Shown: piece after piece, positions 2,526 through 17,995 of the stretch
Numbering within the stretch: position 1 is the first letter of the stretch
How the letters are laid out: each line of letters starts with the position of its first letter
Source of the DNA: a virus
Taxonomy: Duplodnaviria; Caudoviricetes
Reading direction: 5' to 3' (one strand)
Virus record (IMG/VR): IMGVR_UViG_3300042892_000077
Coordinates: 1 to 56,281 of that record
DNA length: 56,281 nucleotides
Notes under the pieces: generated by a model
Database searches by the model: none
What the model saw: only the letters and a program-made list of their open reading frames with translations
What the model was told of the DNA's origin: nothing
Program-made: the position numbers and the translations under genes

Positions 2526-2986
2526 ATTTATCCCTCAACTTCTCCCTACAAGAACTGACCAAAAGTCAGGAGGCGCTGCGCAAGGGGCTGAACAACGCTC
2601 CGTCGCAGGAAGTCATCAGCAACCTGCAAGAGTTGTCCAACATGGTGCTCCAGCGGGTGCGTGACCACTTCGGCAAGTCCGTCGTTGTGACCAGTGGCTA
2701 CCGCAGTCCGGAAGTCAATGCAGCCGTTGGCGGCAGCAAAACCAGCGATCACTGCAAGGGGCAGGCGGCAGACATCGAAATCCCCGGTGTGCCCAACGCA
2801 GAGTTGGCCGAGTGGATTCGTGATAATCTGGACTTTACTCAGGTCATCCTTGAGTTCTATACTCAGGGTATTCCGGACAGCGGCTGGGTGCATGTGTCGT
2901 ACGACCCCGCAAATCTGAAGAAGCAATCGCTGACCGCTGTCAAACAGGATGGCAAGACGGTTTACCTACAAGGACTGGTTGCGTAA
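2522..2986 (+). CDS. Endolysin, peptidase M15A (Zn D-Ala-D-Ala peptidase fold)
   Basis: SGYRSPEVNAAVGGSKTSDHCKGQAADI and WVHVSY motifs. Confidence 0.88.
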   Translation: MNLSLNFSLQELTKSQEALRKGLNNAPSQEVISNLQELSNMVLQRVRDHFGKSVVVTSGYRSPEVNAAVGGSKTSDHCKGQAADIEIPGVPNAELAEWIRDNLDFTQVILEFYTQGIPDSGWVHVSYDPANLKKQSLTAVKQDGKTVYLQGLVA

Positions 2987-5427
2987 TGGCTGGTATCAAG
3001 ATCACCAACTTTCTCGGCACGGCTCCCAAGATAAGCCCGGAGTTGCTGCCGAACACGGCTGCACAGACTGCGAGCAATTGCAAGCTGTACTCGGGTGATC
3101 TGCTGCCTTATCCACAACCTGTTGTCATAGCAAACACGCTGCGCACCGGCACGATCAAGACGCTGTTCGCTCTGCGTGACCCAGACACGGACGCGCTGAA
3201 GTGGCTCTCGTGGGCTACAGACGTGGACATTGCAGTGGCGTCCTCCAACGAGAACGAGGAGCAGCGGTTCTACTACAGCGGCGATGGTGCCCCCAAGGTC
3301 AGCAACTACGAACTGGCGACAACAGGTGCCGCACCGTACCCCACAAACTACTACGATCTAGGGTTACCACTACCCCCGGACGCTACTATCCTGACGACCG
3401 TGGCTTCGACGTTCACGACCAAGACCACTGCCTCGTTCTTCCGGGACGCGGGCAACATCGCCACGATCAACGCGGGTGCTGCTCATGGGTTGCGCACGGG
3501 CAACACCATCACGATCTCCGGCTTTACGTTCATATCCGGGACGTACAACCAAGCGGGAACCTCGACGATCACGGTGACGATCAACGCCCACGGATTGGCA
3601 AACGGAGCCTCCGTCACGCTGGACTTCACGTCTGGCACAGCGGTTGATGGCACGTTTATCATCAGCAACGTCACGACCAACACGTTTGACATCATCGTCA
3701 CGACCGTGGCTACGACCAGCGGCAATGTCAACTTCGACTTGCGCGGGTTCAACGCAACCAACGTGGTGTGTACTGTCACGTCAAGCACAGCGTTCACGTA
3801 CTTCAGCCCCGGCATCCAGATCGGTAGCTCCGGCACGCCCATCGCGTTCACGACTGCCAAGATCGACCTCGGTGGTTTGACACAGACCCGCTCGTATGTC
3901 TTCACTTGGTACACCCCGTGGGATGAGGAATCCATCGCGTCCAAACCGTCGGTCAACCTGTACATCAAGGAAGGCATCACGGTCACGGTCTCGGGTATCC
4001 CTACGGTAAAGCCATCGGGCAACAACTTCATACGTGGTGTGCGGCTGTACCGCACCTTGGCTGCGGCATCTGGCACTGAGTATTTCCTGCTGTCTACGCT
4101 CTGGTTCCCGACTGGGTTGACCAACGTGGCAAGGGCATCGAACGTGTCCACGGTGCAGTTCCTGTACCCGCACAACCTGAGCATCGACGACCGCTTCAAG
4201 ATCAGTGGCTGCACAGACGCGACCTTCAACATCACAGGCGGCATCGTCTTGGACGCGCCGGATGACTACACCATCACGTACGCACAGACTGCGGCCAACG
4301 TGACAAGCACCACTGTTGCTGCCGGTACGATGTACCATGACGTGTCTGAGAACCAGCCGACGACGGCTGCGCGGTACTGGGGCGATGGTTCCTACGACTT
4401 CGTGGATGACTTCGACTCGCTCAACCTGACCGACATTCTGGTCTCCGATGAGTACGATGCACCGCCTGACAACCTGCAAGGGCTGACGGTAATCCAGAAC
4501 AACATCCTTGTTGGCTTCGTCGGTAACACCCTGTACTTCTCAGAACCCGGCGTGCTGCACGCTTGGCCCACGCGGTATGCCTTGCCCTTGGCGTACGACA
4601 TCGTTGGTCTGGCGGCGCTCAGTGGCTCCATGCTGGTTACAACTAAGGGTTATCCCTACCTTATCAGCGGTTCCGACCCTGCTTCCGGCATGGCCTCGGC
4701 CCGGATTGACGCACTGTACCCCTGCCTGAACAGCCGCAGCATGGTGACGATGGGCTATGGTATCGTGTACTCCACGCACGATGGACTGGCCGTCTACTCC
4801 CCCAACAGCGGCCCGACGATCATCACCAAGCTGCTGTACAACAACGACACTTGGGGTGAGGCGCTTGTCCCTTCTACCGTGATCGCTGAATACTACGGGG
4901 AGAATTACTTCGCGTCCCATTCAGGTGGCGCGTTTGTCTTCGAGCAAGACCAGAAGACTGGCGGCTCGTTCGTTGACGTGGACTACTCGTTTACTGCCTC
5001 GTGGTACGACACCGTGTCAGGACATCTGTACTACGTCAATGGAACCAACGGGGACATCTACCAGTGGGATGATCTGGCGCAACCGTCAGTGACGCAGGAG
5101 TGGAAGTCCAAGGTCATCGTCACCAAGGACATGATTAACCTCGGCGCAGCCCGAGTGGTGGCTGACTACTCCAGCGTGACTGTTGACTGGGACGCAGGAA
5201 CCACGCAGTGGCAGGCGTATACCAATACATGGAACAGTGCCGACGAAATTACATTCCGTATGTGGGTGGACAAGTCGCTTATCCTTGAGACGCAGGTCGG
5301 CACTTCAAACGCATTCAGGCTTCCGTCGGGGTATCGCACTGATACGTTCGAGGTGGGTGTTGAAGGCAACATCCGTGTGCGGGCCATCCATCTGGCCGAA
5401 ACTCCACTGGGCTTGAAAGAGACGTAA
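2986..5427 (+). CDS. Tail tubular/nozzle-like structural protein with inserted beta domains
   Basis: 813 aa; beta-propeller-like LYFSEP...AWP, WKSK motifs; HGLxxG repeats; precedes ejection genes. Confidence 0.6.
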   Translation: MAGIKITNFLGTAPKISPELLPNTAAQTASNCKLYSGDLLPYPQPVVIANTLRTGTIKTLFALRDPDTDALKWLSWATDVDIAVASSNENEEQRFYYSGDGAPKVSNYELATTGAAPYPTNYYDLGLPLPPDATILTTVASTFTTKTTASFFRDAGNIATINAGAAHGLRTGNTITISGFTFISGTYNQAGTSTITVTINAHGLANGASVTLDFTSGTAVDGTFIISNVTTNTFDIIVTTVATTSGNVNFDLRGFNATNVVCTVTSSTAFTYFSPGIQIGSSGTPIAFTTAKIDLGGLTQTRSYVFTWYTPWDEESIASKPSVNLYIKEGITVTVSGIPTVKPSGNNFIRGVRLYRTLAAASGTEYFLLSTLWFPTGLTNVARASNVSTVQFLYPHNLSIDDRFKISGCTDATFNITGGIVLDAPDDYTITYAQTAANVTSTTVAAGTMYHDVSENQPTTAARYWGDGSYDFVDDFDSLNLTDILVSDEYDAPPDNLQGLTVIQNNILVGFVGNTLYFSEPGVLHAWPTRYALPLAYDIVGLAALSGSMLVTTKGYPYLISGSDPASGMASARIDALYPCLNSRSMVTMGYGIVYSTHDGLAVYSPNSGPTIITKLLYNNDTWGEALVPSTVIAEYYGENYFASHSGGAFVFEQDQKTGGSFVDVDYSFTASWYDTVSGHLYYVNGTNGDIYQWDDLAQPSVTQEWKSKVIVTKDMINLGAARVVADYSSVTVDWDAGTTQWQAYTNTWNSADEITFRMWVDKSLILETQVGTSNAFRLPSGYRTDTFEVGVEGNIRVRAIHLAETPLGLKET

Positions 5428-8335: not shown

Positions 8336-10165
8336 ATGGCATTAGATTTTGGGCAGTTTCTAGGTGGGGCGGGTACAGTCGCTCGGGGTATGCGTGCAGG
8401 TGAAGAAGCCGAACGCCAAGCACAGACCAGCCGACTCCAGCTTGACGAGCGTAAGCGCCTTGACCAGTTACGTCAGGAGATGGCCGCTGCACCTATGCCA
8501 ACAGCACCCGGTGGGCCTCAGATTCCAATCACCAAGTTCGGTGAACTGGGCATTCTGCCCGTGGAATACATCGAGCCCCCTGCTGCACCCGTAGCCGCTG
8601 CGCCTGTTGTGCCCGCTGGCCCTGCCAACCTGCCAGAGATTCAGACCACACGACCACTGCCGTTCGGCCAAGACGTGCCCAACCCAATTGGCAATGAGCG
8701 CTTGGCGAAGAACGCACAGGAGCTTGTCAAGATGCGCGAGATGCGTGTCGCTGATGTTAAGCGTGGCCTCGACCAGATCGCTACCCGCACTGACATACCT
8801 CCTCGCATGGTGGCAAACCAACGGGCTTCACTGGCCCGTGAGCAGCAGCTTCTGGACGACGCCCGTCGCGGGCTGGCATCGGTAGCCCCAACAGTACCCT
8901 TCGGTATTGAGGGTCGAGGCCGTGGTGCTGCGCCTCCCGAGTTTGCCAAGCTGTACGCTGCGGTTGAACTTGTTGAGAGTGGCGGTAAAGAGAATGCTGT
9001 TAGCCCCAAGGGTGCCCTTGGCCCCATGCAGACAATGCCCAAAACGCTTGTCAAGCCGGGCTTCGGCGTAACTCCTGCCAGAGACGACAGTCCAGCAGAA
9101 CGCCGCCGTGTTGGTCAAGACCTGCTTGCTGCTTTCATTCGGAAGTACGAGGGTAACCTCGACCACGCGCTGGCTGCTTACAACTGGGGGCCGGGCAACA
9201 CCGACAAGTGGATTGCCAAGGGTGCCGACATGGCAAAGCTGCCCAAGGAAACCCGCGAGTACATCCCCAAAGTGAAGCTGGCACTGGGCCAGACTGCGGC
9301 TCCTGCCGCTATGGCTGCTGCACCTGCTGCGCCTGCACCTGCCGCTGGTGGACTGAACATTCCCGGTATCTCCTCGGCGCAAGCTGCTGAACCACCGCGC
9401 ACCCCCAAGATCGAAGTCAGCGGCACGTCCAGCTTCTACCTCGCCAACCCGCAATCCATCCCGATGGAAATGCAACGGGCGCAGCAGCAACGCGGCGAGA
9501 TCGAACGACTCGCTGGCATGTACCAACGCTCCGGCATGGGGCCACAGTTCATGGAAGCCCGTGCCAAGATGATGGAGTTGGACAATGGCATGACCTACCT
9601 GCACGGTATGCAGGGTGTGCAGGAGTTCTCTACTGCCAACGACCCTCGCCGTCTGGCCGCAGTCTGGAGCCAGTACGCAGGCGTGCCCATCGGTATTCAA
9701 CCCCGCACTGATGGTAAGTTCAACATCATCGTCAACGGCAAGAAGACCAAGGAAGGTGTGTCGTCCAGCGAGATCGTTGACACCGCCCGCTCTGCGTTCG
9801 ACCAGACTTACCGCCAGCAGAAGTCAACGGCAAGTGCCGAGTACAACAAAGAATCGTTTAAAGCCCAGCTTAAGATGCAGGAAAATCAGGGTAAAGAGGT
9901 TGCCCAGATGATTCGTGAGGTGGCAGTTGAGCGTATCAAAGGCAGCAACGCGCAAGCACTTGAGTACGCCAAGGCCAACTTCGGCTGGGACATCAAGCCC
10001 ACTGGTTCTGGCGACGGCACTGTCATCATCCGTCCACCCGGCGCAGCCCCGTACCTTTTCAATCCGTCAGGCAAGACAATCGAGATCGACGGTGTTAAAG
10101 TGCAGTCCAACGCAGCATATCCTATCGCCGGTCTCCCGACTTACGGCGGTGTACAAATGAGGTAA
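8336..10165 (+). CDS. Virion-associated lytic transglycosylase (SLT domain) ejection protein
   Basis: VESGG, AVSPKGALGPMQTMP and ALAAYNWGPG are SLT motifs I-III; AAGGAG RBS. Confidence 0.88.
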   Translation: MALDFGQFLGGAGTVARGMRAGEEAERQAQTSRLQLDERKRLDQLRQEMAAAPMPTAPGGPQIPITKFGELGILPVEYIEPPAAPVAAAPVVPAGPANLPEIQTTRPLPFGQDVPNPIGNERLAKNAQELVKMREMRVADVKRGLDQIATRTDIPPRMVANQRASLAREQQLLDDARRGLASVAPTVPFGIEGRGRGAAPPEFAKLYAAVELVESGGKENAVSPKGALGPMQTMPKTLVKPGFGVTPARDDSPAERRRVGQDLLAAFIRKYEGNLDHALAAYNWGPGNTDKWIAKGADMAKLPKETREYIPKVKLALGQTAAPAAMAAAPAAPAPAAGGLNIPGISSAQAAEPPRTPKIEVSGTSSFYLANPQSIPMEMQRAQQQRGEIERLAGMYQRSGMGPQFMEARAKMMELDNGMTYLHGMQGVQEFSTANDPRRLAAVWSQYAGVPIGIQPRTDGKFNIIVNGKKTKEGVSSSEIVDTARSAFDQTYRQQKSTASAEYNKESFKAQLKMQENQGKEVAQMIREVAVERIKGSNAQALEYAKANFGWDIKPTGSGDGTVIIRPPGAAPYLFNPSGKTIEIDGVKVQSNAAYPIAGLPTYGGVQMR

Positions 10166-10168
10166 TTC

Positions 10169-13100
10169 ATGGCCACAGCAGGACTCTCTTTCGCCGACCC
10201 GTTTCTCGCAAAGGTCAACGTCGGTGAGGAGCCGAATCCCTATGCGCCGTACAGCCCAACGTCCAGCATGGGAGCGGGTGGTCTTGCTCCGTCTGCTGCC
10301 GACATGGCTGTCATGGGTGAGTCGCTGGTTAAACAAAGCCAGTTCACGATGCCCGCGATGCGCAAGCCCCCGGCCATTGCGTTCAGTCCAACAACCAAGG
10401 AGTTGTTTGTCAATGGCTTGACGTTTGCTGCGGATGATGCGTCTACTGCGCTTCAGTCTGAGCAGTATCTACGCGGCCCCGGCACTGGTCTACCAACAGG
10501 CGGCGACTGGGTTCCGCTCGACGAGCAAGCCTACGCACAGTACCTTGACTCCATCCGCAACCCCAGCTTGGGCCGACTGGCATCCAAGTCATTTGGGCGT
10601 GGTGTTGACTCCATGCAGATGATGGCTGGCCGTGGTGCCCAGCTTCTTGGGGCTGAGGAGACTGGTGCCAATATCGTGGAGCAGCAAGCTGAGGAACTGC
10701 GCAAGACTGAGCCCTTTGAGCGGCAGTTCACCGACATCGAGTCGGGCCGTGGTGCTGTCGAGTGGTTCGTCGCCAACTTCGCCCAGCAAGGGCCAAACCT
10801 GATTGAGTCCGTGGTGACTGCTGGTGCTGGTTTCCTTGCAGGTACAGCCGCTGGTGGCCCTGCCGCTGGTGCGACTGCTGCGTTCGCTGGCCTCATGGGC
10901 AAGTCCGCGTTCAAGGAAGCCATCAAGGCCGCTGCCCAGAAGAAGATTGCGGGTGAAGCCCTGAACGCCGCAGAGAACAAACTCCTGCGTGAAGCCGCTG
11001 GCTTGGCCGGTGCTGTTGCCACATCCTACGCGCAGAACCTTGCCACTGGTGCTGCTGACATCTACGGTGAGTTGCGTGACCAAGGTGCTGATGCCACGGA
11101 CATGGATGCCCGCCTCAAGGCGCTGGCCGGAAGTGTGCCCTACGCTGCACTGGAGACCCTGCCTGAGTTCTTGCTGGCCGGTCGCTTGTTCGGCGCTGGT
11201 GGTCGTGCCGCCCTGCCCGCAGGTGCCAGCCGTACGGCTCGTGCTGGTGAGTTACTCAAGCGGGGTGCGATTGGTGGTGCAGTAGGCGGTACTGCTGAGG
11301 GCTTAACTGAAGCTGGGCAAGAGAGTCTGTTGCTTGGTATCTCTGACCAAGACCTGAGTTCCCCTGAGAGCGTTGACCGCCTCATCAATTCGTTTGCCGC
11401 TGGCTTCGGTGTCGGTGGCCCCATCGGTGCTGTTGCCAACCTCAAGGGCAAGAAGGCCGCGAACCTGCTGAACCCTGCCCAGAACCCAGAGCAGACCCCC
11501 GGTGCAGCCACAGGTACAGGCTTGGCAGTAATCCCACCGACTGCACCACCTACCCCCGGCACGGGTATGGCTCCGTACTTCTCGCCCATTACGCCGACAG
11601 CCAACGCGCCAACTCCGGGCGCTGCGCAACTGCAACTGCCGCCTCCCGGCCAAGTGCTTCAGGTACAGGGTCGCCCGAACTTCGTGGTGGATTCCAGCGG
11701 TATGGTGCGTCAGGCCATGCCAGAAGACACGATTGTTGGTGTCACAGCCAACATCCCTCCGGGTGCCCAGCCCGGCTCGCAAGGTGTGCTCAACATCTTC
11801 GGCGGTCAGCCCGTCACCGCTGGTGAGATCGCAGCCCGTACTCAAGCAGTTGGTGCCCCACCTGAACTAGGGTATACCCCTACGGCCCCACAGCCAGACG
11901 CCCGGCAAGGTGCGCTTCAGTTCGGTGCTCCTGCCCCTACGCCCGTGGCAAACACACAGATGCCCAACCAGTTGCAGGCCATCCAAGACCGGATGCGCAG
12001 GCAGCGTGAGTTCGAGGCTGCACAGGCCCAGCAGCAAGCACAAGTCCAGCAGCAGATGGAGCAGATCGCTCTGCAAAGCCGCAACGCCCGTGACCTGTAC
12101 ACCATGCAGCAAGCCCAGCAAGCTGCCGCCCAGCAGCCGTCGTTGCCGATGGTTCCTGTGACCCGTCCAGCGCCGCAGCAGTTACCGCTGTTTACCCGCA
12201 AGCAAGCACCCATCCCCCCACGTGCCGGGCAGTTACGCCGTGGTGGCCGTATGGCTGCGCCTGTTGCCCCAGCCGAGGGTGATCGTGGCCTGCGCCAAGC
12301 CACACTGCAAGTGCCCATGTTCGGCACCACTGGTGAGCCCACACTGCCAGCGCTTCGGGCAGCAGGTGTTAAGGGCAAACTTAGCAAACCTGTGCCTGCC
12401 AAGGGTGTCAAGCAGATTCCACCTACCGGCAAGGCCGTGACTCCTGCGTCTGTCGAGCGGGCCAAGGCCGCTGAGGCAGCGAAAGTAACCAAGCTCAAGG
12501 CGGGCATCGCCAAACTCAAAGCAAAGGAGACTCCAAGTGCCATTCAAAAGCCAAGCCCAGCGCCGGTACCTGCACGCGGTCGAGCCGCAACTGGCAAGCA
12601 AGTGGGAGAAAAAGTACCCAGTGAAAAGCAAGCTGCCGGAAAAGGTGAAGCCCTCAAAGCCGAAGCCAAAGTCGAAACCGTAACCGACAAGCTCGCTGCA
12701 CGTATCGCCAAAGGTGCCTTCGGTGGCCCTGCTGGCGCACTCGGGGAGAAACTCAAACAGAGAAAGACTCCCCCAGCAAAAAAAGCTGAGGCGGCACCCG
12801 CTGCCGCCGTCGAGGAAGAACAGTTCGTACCCAAGACTGTTGCTGAACTGGAGGCCGTTGCCCAAGCCAAGCGTGCAGCCCAAGTCCAAGAGGAAGAACA
12901 GACTCCTGCCGACACGTTGGCAGAGGACATGCAGGTTGCAGAGACCGCCACCGATATTGCTACGTTCCGTGGTGCTATCCAGACGGTGCTCAACTACGCC
13001 TACTTCACGGGTGAAGAAACCAACACCAAGAAGCTGGTGGAACAGGCGCGTGCCTTCCTCGCTACCACCCAGTTTTCACTGGAGCAGGTGGGCGCAATTG

Positions 13101-16100
13101 ACCAAGCGTTCTTGGATGCTGCCCAGTCTACGATTGCCCTCGAAGCCATGTACAAAGGCGGCGTCAACAAGGGTAAGAACAAGCCGTGGTTCGACTACGC
13201 TGTCAGCCGTAACCTGCTGCCCAGTATCACTGTGCGCGTTACCAATCTGCCACCGGCATACAAGCCACAGGCATCCCCTATCAGCGGCAAGATCGCCAAG
13301 ACTGTGCCCGTGGAGACCAGTGCTGAGAAGCTGACCCTCACCCCGCAAGCCCGCCTCGGCGAGTTGATCGACGCACTGGTCACGCAACTGCGCACTGTGA
13401 CCCGACTGAACCAAGAGGTGAAGTTCCAAGGTACGTCGTACGCCAACGTCGTGGAGTTAGCCAAGGGGCTCTACGCTGCCACTGATGCTGTTGGTCGTGA
13501 GTACGTTATTCGTGGCTACAAGCTCAAGGATTACTTCACCGACAAGGGTGAACCCAAGATGCTCAAGTCGGGTGGTCGGTACCTGATTACCAACAGAGAC
13601 ATGACCACGGCTGATCAGCGCAAGCTGGAGCAAGAACAGAAAGCCACTGCCAAGGCGCTGGCTGCTGAAGCCAAAGCCAAGTTCGAGGAAGACGTTGACC
13701 TTGAGTCCCGCCTTGGTGGCGGCGCATTCAATGTTGAGGACGACTGGGACAGTGCCGATGGCATGTTCTACCGTGATGACGGCACCCCGATTGCTGCGTC
13801 TATCCCTGCCGGTCGTGTGCAAATGATCGTCAAAGGGTTCCTGTCCAAGCTGCGCAGCAAGCCGACAACCTACGTCTACAACAACGTGGCTGACCTCAAG
13901 GCCCGCAACCCCAAGCTGTTTGCCCGCGCCAGTGCTGCACGTAAGCAAGGCGACTTCGAGTCCACCAACTCGGTGGGTTACTCCTTCGGCCCGAACGTCA
14001 TCATCTTCAGCGACTTCGTGCGCACTGAGCAGCAGCTTAAGTTTGTGCTGGCACACGAGACACTGGGCCACTTCGGCTTCAAGGGTGTGATTCCACAGGC
14101 GCAACTCAACGAGGTGCTGACGCGCATCTATGACGCAGACGTGGACTTGCAAGCTGCTGTCGATGCGATGGTACAGAACCAAGGCATGAGCAAGCTGGAA
14201 GCTGTTGAGGAATATCTGGCCGACAACGCTGCCGATCTGGATACGTCCATCGTGGCTCGCATCTGGAACGTCCTGAAGAACTTCCTGAACAAGCTCGGCT
14301 TTGACTTCCGCGACGACGAGGCTCGCTACTTTGTCAACCAAGCTCGCAAGTATGTGCGCCGTGGTGATGGCGGTAACTTCGTCGGAGTCAAGGCAATCGT
14401 CGGTGACATGGAGCAGCTTGAGCAAGACCGTGATGATGGTCGCTACGCTCGGCAGTCGATGGGCACACTGGCATCTCGGGCATTTGCCACGGGGGCTATG
14501 AACCGGCAGTACGGTGGCACTGGTGGTCTGGCTGGTGCGATGGAAGCGTTTGCCAAGGGTGCCTTCGGTGCTCGCAAGGATGTCCCCGGTCGTATCGCCT
14601 CCGTGCTTGAGCAAGTCCAGACACTGGACAACAAGGCTCGCCGCAGTTACGGTCTGAACCAAATCTACAGGTTGCTTGAAAAGCAGCAGCAGTACGCACG
14701 CGCTTTGCTGTCGAAGTACCAGCGTATGACGGCGTTCACCCACTCACCCGATGTGTTCGGGTTTGGCAACGGTGTGACCGAGGCACAGAAGGAAGTGTCT
14801 GGCGAGTTGCTGTCACGCGCTGCGCTGCTGCGTGCCGCTGAGGCTACCGATGAAGTCATCAAGTCGTACGACAGTCTGGTCTCAGTAGACGCCAGTGGTG
14901 TGATCAACGTAGACCCGATTGTGCGGCAAGCCATTGAGAAAGCTGGCTTCGTGACGGCTGAGGAGTTCCGCAAGGGCTTCGACATCACCTACTCCAACGG
15001 CGAGAAGGTGCGCTTCCAGTTCGACGTGAAGGAAGACAGCCCAGAGTGGAAGGTCTACACCGAGTTGCGTGAGACTGTGAACGATGCAGCTATCGACCTG
15101 ATGCTGTCCAACTACGAAGCTGCACAGGCTGAAGGCAAGCGCGTCATCAGCGATCTAAACGCCAAGCGCAAGGGTGCGAACGTGTTCACGGCGATGGACT
15201 TGGAAGCTGTTCGTCAAGCTGCCATGCTGTACCAAGAAAAGCGGTATGCAGGTAGTGACGTTGCCAGTGCTGGTGTTGACCTCAAGCGCAAGTCGCAGAA
15301 GGAATCCGAGGAGTTCGTGGTCGCATTCGGTCGGGCACTGTTCAACGATGACGTGTTCGCAGTGTGGATGAAAGACCCAGCCGCCAAGGCTGAGATCGCC
15401 AAGGACATGGAGGAGTTCCTCAAGGCTGAGTACGATGACCTGCGTGCCCAACTGCCAAGTCTGCGCAGCAAGATCAAGGGCGACACCCAGTCGTTCGAGG
15501 TGCAGAAAGCTATCCGCGATCTGTTCATGTTCGACCTGCAATCCAAGAACGCAGACTACTACGCCAAGCGCACCATCCTTGGTTCGTATGTTCCGTTCAC
15601 ACGCCGTGGCTCTGAGCAAGTGCGACTCGTGGCTGTTGATGAGCGGGGCAACCCAGTGCAACTGGACGAGAACCTGCGTGCCACGCTGCCGTACTTCCAG
15701 TTCGATAGCCGCAGTGAAGCAACCGCCGCTGCTGAGGAGTTGGAGGCTGAGTTCGGTGGCGATAACGAGTGGGTGATGCTTGACGAGACTGGCTCTGAGA
15801 CCACTGTCCGGCTGCGCCCCGAAGTATCCAAGACCCGTCAGTCCCCTGACTTGACTGAAGCAGTGAACTTCAACGAGTTCGTCTACGTGCTGAACCGACT
15901 GAACGTCAACCTCGCACCAGAGACTCGTGAGAAGATCGTCACGACACTGACCAACCAGAACAGTCGCGCACGCCGCAACCTCCAGCGTTCTGGTACTGAG
16001 GGCTGGGATAAGAATGTGGTGCGCTCCGTGTCTGAGCATCTGGAAACGTCGGCTCACGTCGCTGCCAAGAAGCTGTACCGCCACCGCCTCGACGACATCT

Positions 16101-17995
16101 TGCTGACAACCGGCAATTGGTTGGGGGATGAGGGTAAGCTCAACGCACTGAAAGATGCCGTGGATAGTGCTACGTCAGACGGTGCCCGCGCCCGCGCCCA
16201 GCGTGAGTACGATGAGTACGCCTTCATGTACCAGTACATGGCCGGTAGCCGTGGCGGCAAGACTGTCACCATCGGTGGCAAGGAAGTACCCACACTGGGT
16301 CGTGGCGAGGACTACCGTGAAGAAGCCAAGCAGGTGCTGCGTTGGTACAGCGAAGCGTCCAACATCACGGACTCCACCGAGGACATGCTGTCTGGCGAAG
16401 CTGGTTCTGCACTCAAACTTACCACGGTGCTGATGCAGTTGGGTGGCTCTGTCGCCACGGCTGTGATCAACTTGGCATCGCTTGTCACACACAGCCTGCC
16501 ATACCTGTCGTACTACAACTCGGCTCGCGGGTTCGGTGGTGGCTACGGTGAGGCCAAGTCTGCCACTGCGCTCTGGAAAGCTGCCAAGGACTTGAAGAAC
16601 CCCAACTTGTCCGAGGATGCGTTCCTCAACGAGATGATGCGTGATGGTTCGTACGAGCAGTACGGCTTGACGGAAGACGAAGCGCAGTTCTTGTTTGACC
16701 AGACCGAGCAGGGCACACTGCAAGCATCCCAGTTCAACGCGCTCGTGGGTACTGCACGCGGCAAGGTGTTCAACAACAAGGCACAAGCTGCCATTAAGTT
16801 GTGGATGTCCATGTTCAGCTACACCGAGTCGGTCAACCGCCGTGTCACGGCACTGGCTGCGTACCGGCTGGAGAAAGACCGCGCACTTGCCCAAGGTGTG
16901 GACGAAGCACAGGCTATCACTGACGCCACAGAAGCTGCCCGTAAAGCAGTCAACTACGCGCAGGGTGAGTACGCCATGTTCAACCGCCCCGAGATGGCTC
17001 GTGGCAACGTGCTGCAATACATCTTCATGTACAAGCAGTTCGTGATCGTGACTGTGCAGTTGCTGCGTAACATGCCCAAGGAAGGGCAGTTGATGATGCT
17101 TGGCTTCTTGCTGCTGACATCCGGTCTCAAGGGTCTGCCGTTTGCTGAGGACATCTTCGACATCGTGGACACCATCGCGCAGAAGCTGGGGCTGAAGATG
17201 CCAAGCGTGGAGAAAGCACTGTCCGAGTGGATTGATGCTGTAGCCCCCGGCGCTACACCCTACCTGATGCGTGGTGCGCTTGACCGGGTGACTGGTGCAA
17301 CGGTCTCCACCCGCATGGGTATGGGCGATCTGATTCCACTGACTGGTGCGTTCCGCGCTGGTGCTGACCCTGCTCGTGAGGCCGCAGACTTTGCTGGCCC
17401 AGTGTTCAGTGGTATCACAGGGCTGGTAGGCATGGCTGGTTCTCTCACCAAGTACGGTGCGGAAGTAACAGGTCTGCGTGACGACACCACGGACTTCAAC
17501 ACTGTGCTGCGTGAGTCTCCGGTTGCTGCGTTCCGCTCAGTCGGCGACAGCTTCGCCTTCCTCACCGATGGCCGGATAACAAACATGCGTGGACAAGTTG
17601 TGGCAAATGAAGCACCGCTGCACACAGTCGTCGCCCGTCTGTTGGGCTTCTACCCTGCCATTGCCACGGAGCAGAACGACATCGTGCGTATCTCCAAGCA
17701 AGCGACCGAGTACAACAAGGCGATCAAGGCTGAGTACGTCAAGTCGTATGTCAAGGCCAAGCTGGCTGGTGACTCTGACCGCATGGCTAGCATCGCTGAG
17801 GATGTGCGCGAGTGGAACGAAGCTGCCAAGGGTACGGGGCTGGAGATCACCTCGTTCGGTAAGTCAGCCAACCGTGCCGCACTCGAAGCATCCCGTCCGA
17901 CAGTAGCCCGTTATCTCAAGTCAGCACCCAAACAGATGCGGCCTGAGACATTGGAACTGCTGCGGCTCAACGGACTGGACGACGAGATCAGATAG
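10169..17995 (+). CDS. Giant polyvalent virion/ejection protein (2608 aa) with zincin-like metallopeptidase and PLxRFG-like region
   Basis: AHETLGH...EEYLA zincin-like motif; YVPFTRRG; helical C-terminus; GAGGT RBS. Confidence 0.75.
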   Translation: MATAGLSFADPFLAKVNVGEEPNPYAPYSPTSSMGAGGLAPSAADMAVMGESLVKQSQFTMPAMRKPPAIAFSPTTKELFVNGLTFAADDASTALQSEQYLRGPGTGLPTGGDWVPLDEQAYAQYLDSIRNPSLGRLASKSFGRGVDSMQMMAGRGAQLLGAEETGANIVEQQAEELRKTEPFERQFTDIESGRGAVEWFVANFAQQGPNLIESVVTAGAGFLAGTAAGGPAAGATAAFAGLMGKSAFKEAIKAAAQKKIAGEALNAAENKLLREAAGLAGAVATSYAQNLATGAADIYGELRDQGADATDMDARLKALAGSVPYAALETLPEFLLAGRLFGAGGRAALPAGASRTARAGELLKRGAIGGAVGGTAEGLTEAGQESLLLGISDQDLSSPESVDRLINSFAAGFGVGGPIGAVANLKGKKAANLLNPAQNPEQTPGAATGTGLAVIPPTAPPTPGTGMAPYFSPITPTANAPTPGAAQLQLPPPGQVLQVQGRPNFVVDSSGMVRQAMPEDTIVGVTANIPPGAQPGSQGVLNIFGGQPVTAGEIAARTQAVGAPPELGYTPTAPQPDARQGALQFGAPAPTPVANTQMPNQLQAIQDRMRRQREFEAAQAQQQAQVQQQMEQIALQSRNARDLYTMQQAQQAAAQQPSLPMVPVTRPAPQQLPLFTRKQAPIPPRAGQLRRGGRMAAPVAPAEGDRGLRQATLQVPMFGTTGEPTLPALRAAGVKGKLSKPVPAKGVKQIPPTGKAVTPASVERAKAAEAAKVTKLKAGIAKLKAKETPSAIQKPSPAPVPARGRAATGKQVGEKVPSEKQAAGKGEALKAEAKVETVTDKLAARIAKGAFGGPAGALGEKLKQRKTPPAKKAEAAPAAAVEEEQFVPKTVAELEAVAQAKRAAQVQEEEQTPADTLAEDMQVAETATDIATFRGAIQTVLNYAYFTGEETNTKKLVEQARAFLATTQFSLEQVGAIDQAFLDAAQSTIALEAMYKGGVNKGKNKPWFDYAVSRNLLPSITVRVTNLPPAYKPQASPISGKIAKTVPVETSAEKLTLTPQARLGELIDALVTQLRTVTRLNQEVKFQGTSYANVVELAKGLYAATDAVGREYVIRGYKLKDYFTDKGEPKMLKSGGRYLITNRDMTTADQRKLEQEQKATAKALAAEAKAKFEEDVDLESRLGGGAFNVEDDWDSADGMFYRDDGTPIAASIPAGRVQMIVKGFLSKLRSKPTTYVYNNVADLKARNPKLFARASAARKQGDFESTNSVGYSFGPNVIIFSDFVRTEQQLKFVLAHETLGHFGFKGVIPQAQLNEVLTRIYDADVDLQAAVDAMVQNQGMSKLEAVEEYLADNAADLDTSIVARIWNVLKNFLNKLGFDFRDDEARYFVNQARKYVRRGDGGNFVGVKAIVGDMEQLEQDRDDGRYARQSMGTLASRAFATGAMNRQYGGTGGLAGAMEAFAKGAFGARKDVPGRIASVLEQVQTLDNKARRSYGLNQIYRLLEKQQQYARALLSKYQRMTAFTHSPDVFGFGNGVTEAQKEVSGELLSRAALLRAAEATDEVIKSYDSLVSVDASGVINVDPIVRQAIEKAGFVTAEEFRKGFDITYSNGEKVRFQFDVKEDSPEWKVYTELRETVNDAAIDLMLSNYEAAQAEGKRVISDLNAKRKGANVFTAMDLEAVRQAAMLYQEKRYAGSDVASAGVDLKRKSQKESEEFVVAFGRALFNDDVFAVWMKDPAAKAEIAKDMEEFLKAEYDDLRAQLPSLRSKIKGDTQSFEVQKAIRDLFMFDLQSKNADYYAKRTILGSYVPFTRRGSEQVRLVAVDERGNPVQLDENLRATLPYFQFDSRSEATAAAEELEAEFGGDNEWVMLDETGSETTVRLRPEVSKTRQSPDLTEAVNFNEFVYVLNRLNVNLAPETREKIVTTLTNQNSRARRNLQRSGTEGWDKNVVRSVSEHLETSAHVAAKKLYRHRLDDILLTTGNWLGDEGKLNALKDAVDSATSDGARARAQREYDEYAFMYQYMAGSRGGKTVTIGGKEVPTLGRGEDYREEAKQVLRWYSEASNITDSTEDMLSGEAGSALKLTTVLMQLGGSVATAVINLASLVTHSLPYLSYYNSARGFGGGYGEAKSATALWKAAKDLKNPNLSEDAFLNEMMRDGSYEQYGLTEDEAQFLFDQTEQGTLQASQFNALVGTARGKVFNNKAQAAIKLWMSMFSYTESVNRRVTALAAYRLEKDRALAQGVDEAQAITDATEAARKAVNYAQGEYAMFNRPEMARGNVLQYIFMYKQFVIVTVQLLRNMPKEGQLMMLGFLLLTSGLKGLPFAEDIFDIVDTIAQKLGLKMPSVEKALSEWIDAVAPGATPYLMRGALDRVTGATVSTRMGMGDLIPLTGAFRAGADPAREAADFAGPVFSGITGLVGMAGSLTKYGAEVTGLRDDTTDFNTVLRESPVAAFRSVGDSFAFLTDGRITNMRGQVVANEAPLHTVVARLLGFYPAIATEQNDIVRISKQATEYNKAIKAEYVKSYVKAKLAGDSDRMASIAEDVREWNEAAKGTGLEITSFGKSANRAALEASRPTVARYLKSAPKQMRPETLELLRLNGLDDEIR
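12537..12683 (+). CDS. Nested +1-frame small basic protein MPFKSQAQRRYLHAVEPQLASKWEKKYPVKSKLPEKVKPSKPKPKSKP (48 aa)
   Basis: AAGGAG at 12524-12529, 7 nt before GTG; resembles, from recall, the phage 'MPFKSxxQRR' small-protein family. Confidence 0.65.
   Translation: MPFKSQAQRRYLHAVEPQLASKWEKKYPVKSKLPEKVKPSKPKPKSKP

Follow-up and report, generated by a model that had tools for sequence, protein, structure and literature searches.

Does the gene for a giant virion protein of a tailed phage carry, out of frame and within one of its linkers, a second gene? The question arises in the IMG/VR record IMGVR_UViG_3300042892_000077, a complete virus record with direct terminal repeats, whose 56,281 bp are referred to here as the window. 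A giant virion-type protein of 2608 aa is encoded at 10169-17995 on the plus strand, and in a low-complexity linker, about 789 codons from its start, an earlier note on this DNA had pointed to a small open reading frame (ORF) overprinted on the giant one. Indeed, an AAGGAG resembling a Shine-Dalgarno (SD) element at 12524-12529 (plus strand) is followed, after a spacer of 7 nt (actccaa), by a GTG at 12537, which opens 48 codons in the +1 frame relative to the giant ORF, ending with TAA at 12681-12683. The translation is identical to the peptide reported in the earlier note, the linker peptide that the note quoted for the host frame is found in the translation of the giant ORF, and the DNA at the nested ORF is A-rich, as had been remarked (34% A, vs 22% across the entire giant ORF). 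We conclude from comparative sequence analysis that 12537-12683 (plus strand) is very probably a genuine protein-coding gene in the +1 frame of a giant PLxRFG/zincin virion-protein gene. The family of the window peptide, with the N-terminus MPFKS, is called F1 below.

Taken alone, the evidence inside the window is only suggestive. There are 21 same-strand alternative-frame ORFs of at least 40 codons inside the giant gene, a number that invites the explanation of a chance ORF behind a chance SD. A GGAG or GAGG core precedes the first start in 2/21 of these ORFs and the full AAGGAG precedes the nested ORF alone, the hexamer occurring twice in the whole giant gene; the peptide itself has one copy in the window. 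It is because of the comparison with other phages that we regard the nested ORF as more than chance: the conservation data presented below already refute the chance explanation, and we give it a negligible probability. A longer ORF of 206 codons in the same +1 frame (window 12714-13334, plus strand) begins 31 nt past the nested stop. This one is probably a chance ORF of GC-rich DNA, since the GC content by codon position downstream favours the host frame.

Homologues of the peptide occur both within and outside giant genes. Searching GenBank phages by tblastn, we obtained 12 weak matches, all from query residue 1, and in the six records inspected the match lies outside giant genes. In 023Pt_psg01 (a coding sequence of 39 aa) and in Streptomyces phage FlowerPower (gp48, 72 aa), the match starts at the annotated start codon, and both homologues have the shared N-terminal motif and a basic tail. 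Stand-alone F1 homologues were also seen in unannotated gaps of C75C1 (L003:3001-3105), S-CBS2 (L004:3001-3111) and P-RSP2 (L005:3001-3123), and these look like small genes missed in the deposited genomes. A first scan of IMG/VR gave 34 loci with relatives: 17 are nested in the +1 frame of open frames of 754-2858 codons, 10 stand alone as small ORFs, and 7 form the N-terminal module of a protein of 153-368 aa. In 34/34 the match runs from query residue 1. Stand-alone homologues, which the earlier note had suggested from a resemblance to small basic phage proteins, thus exist and start at the same residue in 023Pt_psg01, in FlowerPower and throughout the IMG/VR matches.

The family proved to be large. 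A 25-member profile (alignment A2) searched against 1.84 billion clusters retrieved 4,593 representatives at E<=0.001, 937 of them at E<=1e-10; among the best 150 of the 4,593 (45-575 aa), 126 match from protein residue 1 or 2. The 48-aa peptide, for which the earlier note had proposed a database search, is thus one of many small basic phage proteins that form a single family. The window peptide itself is not among the called proteins of a collection of 5.8 billion clusters, where a search restricted to 26-84 aa returned 6 weak relatives. The ESM Atlas contains unnamed viral clusters of 40-51 aa and gave DUF3008 as a lead only (score 0.86); neither the peptide nor its F1 relatives match DUF3008 (PF11450) in Pfam at E<=1, and the window peptide has no match to phrog_1375 at E<=1. 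Long F1 forms have added DUF5661 or glycine-zipper segments, which are uninformative as to function.

A sample independent of the peptide was drawn from the giant genes themselves. The giant ORF contains a conserved HExxH (zincin-like) block at 13736-14428 (plus strand; alignment A1), and a scan with this block found 250 relatives, of which the best 80 were kept; F1 was then sought in the 80 loci with a hidden Markov model (HMM) of the peptide over six-frame translations. At the same slot, 34 loci have F1, 14 have a second small ORF family, termed F2 and described below, and 32 have neither. Divided by the length of sequence available upstream of the anchor, the corresponding counts are 30, 12 and 23 for the 65 loci with 2,100 nt or more, and 4, 2 and 9 for the 15 shorter ones. 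Wherever a start could be placed, the hits are +1 to, and inside, the zincin-bearing ORF in 46/47 cases, so that a small ORF wholly inside a larger one, on the same strand and in the +1 frame, is found in the window and in 46/47 relatives. The exception, L073, has a split giant; L014 belongs to the same contig and has the gene nested within an upstream ORF of 1191 codons. The hit in L061 extends past the end of the locus.

Start signals were compared over 54 nested loci, pooled from the two scans with duplicates between scans kept. A start codon (31 ATG, 23 GTG) stands at the aligned position in 54/54, an SD-like 5-mer lies 4-17 nt before the aligned start in 53/54, and a GGAG/GAGG core is present in 46/54. 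The giant proteins of nine loci from the first scan are 20-62% identical to that of the window, so that homologous giants share the ribosome-binding site, the start codon and a +1 frame free of stops even when considerably diverged. The earlier note had also suggested that linkers of the form AIQ(E/K)PS in other giant phage proteins would hide the same ORF. This suggestion is borne out: host-frame AVQ(K/E)PS recurs in other giants, because it is the shadow of MPFKSQ. A longer nested F1 form of 80-89 codons, also +1 inside the giant ORF and with an added Arg/Gln-rich C-terminal extension, was observed in L071, L072, L091, L095, L104, L106-L108, L111 and L112, and the giant of L041 has an extra insertion of about 65 aa with Gly/Asp/Tyr repeats just upstream of the nested gene (L041:~4400-4600).

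The conserved start region bears directly on a different way of using the +1 frame, namely a programmed +1 frameshift near 12537 that would produce a truncated giant of about 790 aa with a basic C-terminal tail, the SD-like site acting as stimulator. SD-like stimulators of frameshifting are known, for example in prfB. Such a mechanism would agree with the constant +1 phase (46/47 placed cases), with an SD-like element just upstream, and with the +1 frame being open for some codons (1-141) upstream of the start in several loci. However, an ATG or GTG at the aligned position in 54/54 loci is unnecessary for a shift site, stand-alone homologues start with Met at exactly that residue, and in several loci a +1 stop lies 1-8 codons upstream of the start. 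The breakpoints between exchanged cassettes, described below, also fall at the start codon. We consider a frameshift very improbable.

The two overlapping frames differ strongly in how they vary. Over the 39 gap-free codons shared by 15 nested F1 loci, site entropy is 0.73, 0.48 and 1.05 at nested codon positions 1, 2 and 3, respectively, and amino-acid identity is 61% in the nested frame vs 39% in the host frame. The ratio of the proportions of nonsynonymous and synonymous differences (pN/pS), calculated by the Nei-Gojobori method and only rough, as the method is biased on overlapping frames and was applied without a tree to non-independent pairs, is 0.43 for the nested frame vs 1.72 for the host frame in these loci, the nested value being the lower one in 105/105 pairs. 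A similar difference is seen with 29 non-redundant F1 copies (0.45 nested vs 1.61 host) and with 10 F2 copies over 55 codons (0.32 nested vs 1.82 host). As a control, a 66-codon gap-free part of the zincin block from eight phages gave a host-frame value of 0.48, with 0.92 and 1.48 in the two remaining frames, while the nested region of the same eight phages gave 0.44 for the nested frame vs 1.72 for the host frame. Comparing substitution in each frame, a check that the earlier note had put forward, thus favours the nested frame. Within the overlap the host frame changes as a non-coding frame would, except that it is kept free of stops. The embedded frame has, besides its own start codon (ATG or GTG in 54/54) and SD-like element (53/54), a pN/pS pattern of purifying selection.

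That the host frame is kept open is apparent from the stop codons. Across the small gene the host frame is stop-free in 48/48 non-redundant nested copies and the third frame in 11/48, and among stand-alone or N-terminal-module homologues the host-equivalent frame is open in only 7/19. The open host frame in 48/48 therefore speaks for true dual coding and not for two genes joined by chance. A discontinuous giant ORF, that is, two genes with the small gene between them, connected by chance or by an assembly error, would account for the lack of amino-acid-level constraint on the host frame in the overlap. It would also suit L007 and L008, in which the host of the nested gene is only 753 aa long and ends 122 nt past the nested stop, and the contig of L014 and L073, which carries the giant as separate ORFs. 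Such a reading is difficult to reconcile with the frame counts just given, with the many independent contigs that have a continuous ORF of 2,400-2,950 codons, and with an empty-slot relative that reads through in the same frame; we find it extremely improbable. The 753-aa gene of L007 (2264-4525) and L008 has no PHROG match, carries F1 in +1 near its C-terminus, and has its sole significant similarity to the window giant in the overlap itself. The small gene is therefore not bound to one host gene.

Relatives of the window lend the dual-coding reading a further dimension, in that the small gene behaves as an exchangeable unit. Close relatives without F1 have a different +1 ORF, F2, of 57-61 codons, which begins MPLKKGSS and is preceded by an SD and opened by an ATG or GTG of its own. 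We treat F1 and F2 as unrelated, because their hhalign probability is 1.1%. F2 matches phrog_2423 with an E value of 2e-8, over positions 1-22 of 52 only, and DUF6496 with an E value of 0.029 and 15.2 bits, under the cut-off of 24. L066, which has F1, is near-identical to L062 and L067, which have F2, as far as the SD and the opening bases of the ORF. No alignment is possible inside the small gene, and near-identity returns at the stop. Likewise, L046 (F1) is near-identical to L047 and L049 (F2) at the 5' side, with identity back downstream. L050 and L068 have flanks about 88-89% identical to those of L049 and a different filler of 169 nt in the slot, which has no SD, is read through by the host frame and is full of stops in both other frames. 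These two slots are empty sites. In L075 the segment is missing altogether, and the complete genomes to which L075 and L088 belong (G001 and G005) gave no F1 or F2 match at E<=0.01 anywhere. The slot is thus a cassette site: near-identical phages have F1, F2 or nothing, with breakpoints at the start and stop of the small ORF. The view that the gene was captured by the giant gene is compatible with filled and empty sites in near-identical phages, although the direction of the event is not given by these sites.

Some additional features of the slot were recorded. A search for a third cassette family among alternative-frame ORFs with an SD in the 32 loci with neither F1 nor F2 gave nothing convincing. 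A second SD-like element, AAGGAGG, follows right after the nested stop in L066 (~4905-4925), L062 and L067, and the window is without an equivalent. An F2-like gene of 60 aa (L121:1489-1671) stands alone among small basic genes in the record of L064, a locus with an empty slot; it is the first of three in a row on the minus strand (L121:1489-2155; 60, 77 and 85 aa).

Variable occupancy raises the possibility that the nested gene is a passenger relic, inserted in a tolerant linker and either unexpressed or unneeded, whose apparent conservation reflects the recent spread of a cassette by recombination. Complete genomes lacking the gene and the exchange of cassettes between near-identical backgrounds would fit a relic. 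Nevertheless, frame, start codon and SD are retained, with pN/pS at 0.45, in copies that differ in up to about half of their residues, and most of the variation falls on third positions of nested codons. None of the 47 placed hits has an internal stop or has lost its start, though HMM detection under-reports badly decayed copies. We see only a very small chance that the gene is a relic.

Several observations weigh against a genuine nested gene and have to be set beside the evidence for it. The first IMG/VR scan was seeded by patterns of the peptide itself, the zincin-based sample consists of the best 80 of its 250 relatives, and the pN/pS values have the limits given with them. The slot holds nothing in 23/65 assessable relatives and, because complete relatives do without it, the nested gene is dispensable. 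Searches of Pfam, PHROGs and NCBIfam gave no match for the peptide, the F1 members tested reach no Pfam or NCBIfam model, and the similarity of F1 relatives to phrog_1375, a family of unknown function, is weak (E values of 0.0015-0.23 for one set of relatives and 7e-6 to 9e-4 for another) and covers profile positions 17-65 only. Finally, tblastn of the zincin block against GenBank phages gave no match, and thus no cultured relative. We nevertheless hold to a protein-coding gene at 12537-12683; the comparative evidence supports the earlier proposal of a dual-coding nested gene that gene callers miss.

What kind of gene is the host? The giant protein matches the NCBIfam model NF032893 (PLxRFG domain) with 186.7 bits, the cut-off being 100, over residues 2075-2559 (16391-17845, plus strand), and phrog_11358 with an E value of 2e-45. 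By tblastn its C-terminus is about 26% identical to giants of F116-like and other phages, and the GenBank matches are annotated as PLxRFG, DarB-like or structural protein; blastn of the region against GenBank phages gave no match. The HExxH motif lies at window positions 14054-14071, and H107, E108 and H112 of alignment A1 are invariant in seven relatives. No Pfam peptidase match was obtained for the giant protein, and the HExxH block may be an uncatalogued zincin-like domain. Immediately upstream, a protein of 609 aa with a transglycosylase/lytic domain is encoded at 8336-10165 (plus strand; phrog_2013 and phrog_342, 'internal virion protein with endolysin domain'), and further upstream an internal virion protein of 813 aa at 2986-5427 (plus strand; phrog_511, E value of 3e-118). 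Because of these neighbours, we place the giant gene in an ejection or internal-virion module.

The nested product is strongly basic, with 14 Lys and Arg residues per 48, a net charge of +11 and no Cys. AlphaFold2 (alignment A2) predicts helices at residues 6-15 and 17-26, followed by an extended Lys/Pro-rich tail, with a mean predicted local distance difference test score (pLDDT) of 82.8. The top match of this model in a Foldseek search of the PDB has an E value of 9 and is unusable. A profile search of the PDB returned only designer 'Cake' repeat proteins, with nine repeats of about 2 bits each, which we reject as spurious. As to expression, we found no internal promoter-like site near the nested gene, and the RNA around the nested start has no extra structure compared with shuffled sequence (z = +1.23). 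The lack of a promoter-like site and of extra structure at the start is compatible with internal initiation on the late mRNA but is not proof of it. We propose that, on this late mRNA, some ribosomes would initiate inside the giant gene at the SD and GTG, yielding a separate 48-aa protein, while other ribosomes would read the giant frame through a linker whose amino-acid sequence may vary freely.

The positions of the stand-alone genes provide a hint of function. In 023Pt_psg01 (F1) and DSL-LC04 (F2) the gene is flanked by portal and head genes. Other F1 genes follow the major head protein in S-CBS2, precede head closure in C75C1, and lie some 2 kb upstream of the tail sheath in L029 and L038 and near the terminase in L017. 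In FlowerPower, by contrast, the F1 gene lies between genes annotated as peptidase and holin. Our guess, offered with low confidence, is that the nested gene supplies the head or ejection module with a basic accessory protein that associates with the virion or with DNA. We also put forward, tentatively, a wider proposal: the linker of PLxRFG giants might be a dedicated gene-in-gene slot, in which genes for small basic proteins of at least two unrelated families would replace one another in the +1 frame, recombining at the SD/start and at the stop, with the giant frame remaining open throughout. Their products would be made together with the giant and might act with it, e.g. by being packaged or ejected to coat or protect the entering DNA.

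The locus resembles known arrangements in some respects and departs from each of them. Morons lie between genes and have their own promoter and terminator. Like them, the cassette described here may be present, absent or replaced among near-identical genomes, and its breakpoints coincide with the ends of the gene; unlike morons, it sits inside an ORF, must keep the frame open and has no promoter-like site that we could find nearby. Small basic phage proteins of the MPFKS type, for which phrog_1375 is the nearest catalogued family, have the same motif, size and basic tail, but are free-standing. Among giants of the PLxRFG/DarB-like kind, the window host matches NF032893, and the distant carriers L018 and L019 match the DarB-like phrog_10089. 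Closest in layout is lambda Rz1, which is embedded in +1 in Rz, the mature part of Rz1 lying in a mutationally silent stretch of Rz of about 40 codons, an architecture that its authors term 'unique' (PMC5295617). In both cases a small gene lies wholly in +1 inside a larger phage gene, in a variable part of the host. The window product, unlike Rz1, contains no Cys and hence no lipobox, lacks a hydrophobic N-terminus and has a charge of +11. An o-spanin (Rz1-like) identity, that of an outer-membrane lipoprotein with a signal peptide and a lipobox Cys, is ruled out by the missing Cys and hydrophobic N-terminus. Unlike Rz, the host is a 2608-aa PLxRFG virion protein and not an i-spanin. In further contrast to Rz/Rz1, the embedded gene is an exchangeable cassette, drawn from two or more unrelated families and missing from many relatives, and a joint working of the two products is here a supposition.

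Embedded out-of-frame genes in tailed phages are known mainly from Rz/Rz1, and the titles and abstract openings covered by our literature search describe no gene nested in those for giant, PLxRFG or polyvalent proteins of phages. What the locus adds to Rz/Rz1 is a nested gene conserved across divergent giants and under purifying selection, in a host frame that is merely kept open, and a cassette with two families. For annotation, F1 has thousands of cluster representatives and no Pfam model, and three stand-alone homologues in GenBank are unannotated. The locus also offers a testable case for asking how insertions are tolerated in giant genes that are essential, and by what means both coding frames persist. 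If the linker is indeed a dedicated slot, accessory genes overlooked by gene callers would be widespread in phages as a class, with the kind of dual coding that has been termed unique for Rz/Rz1.

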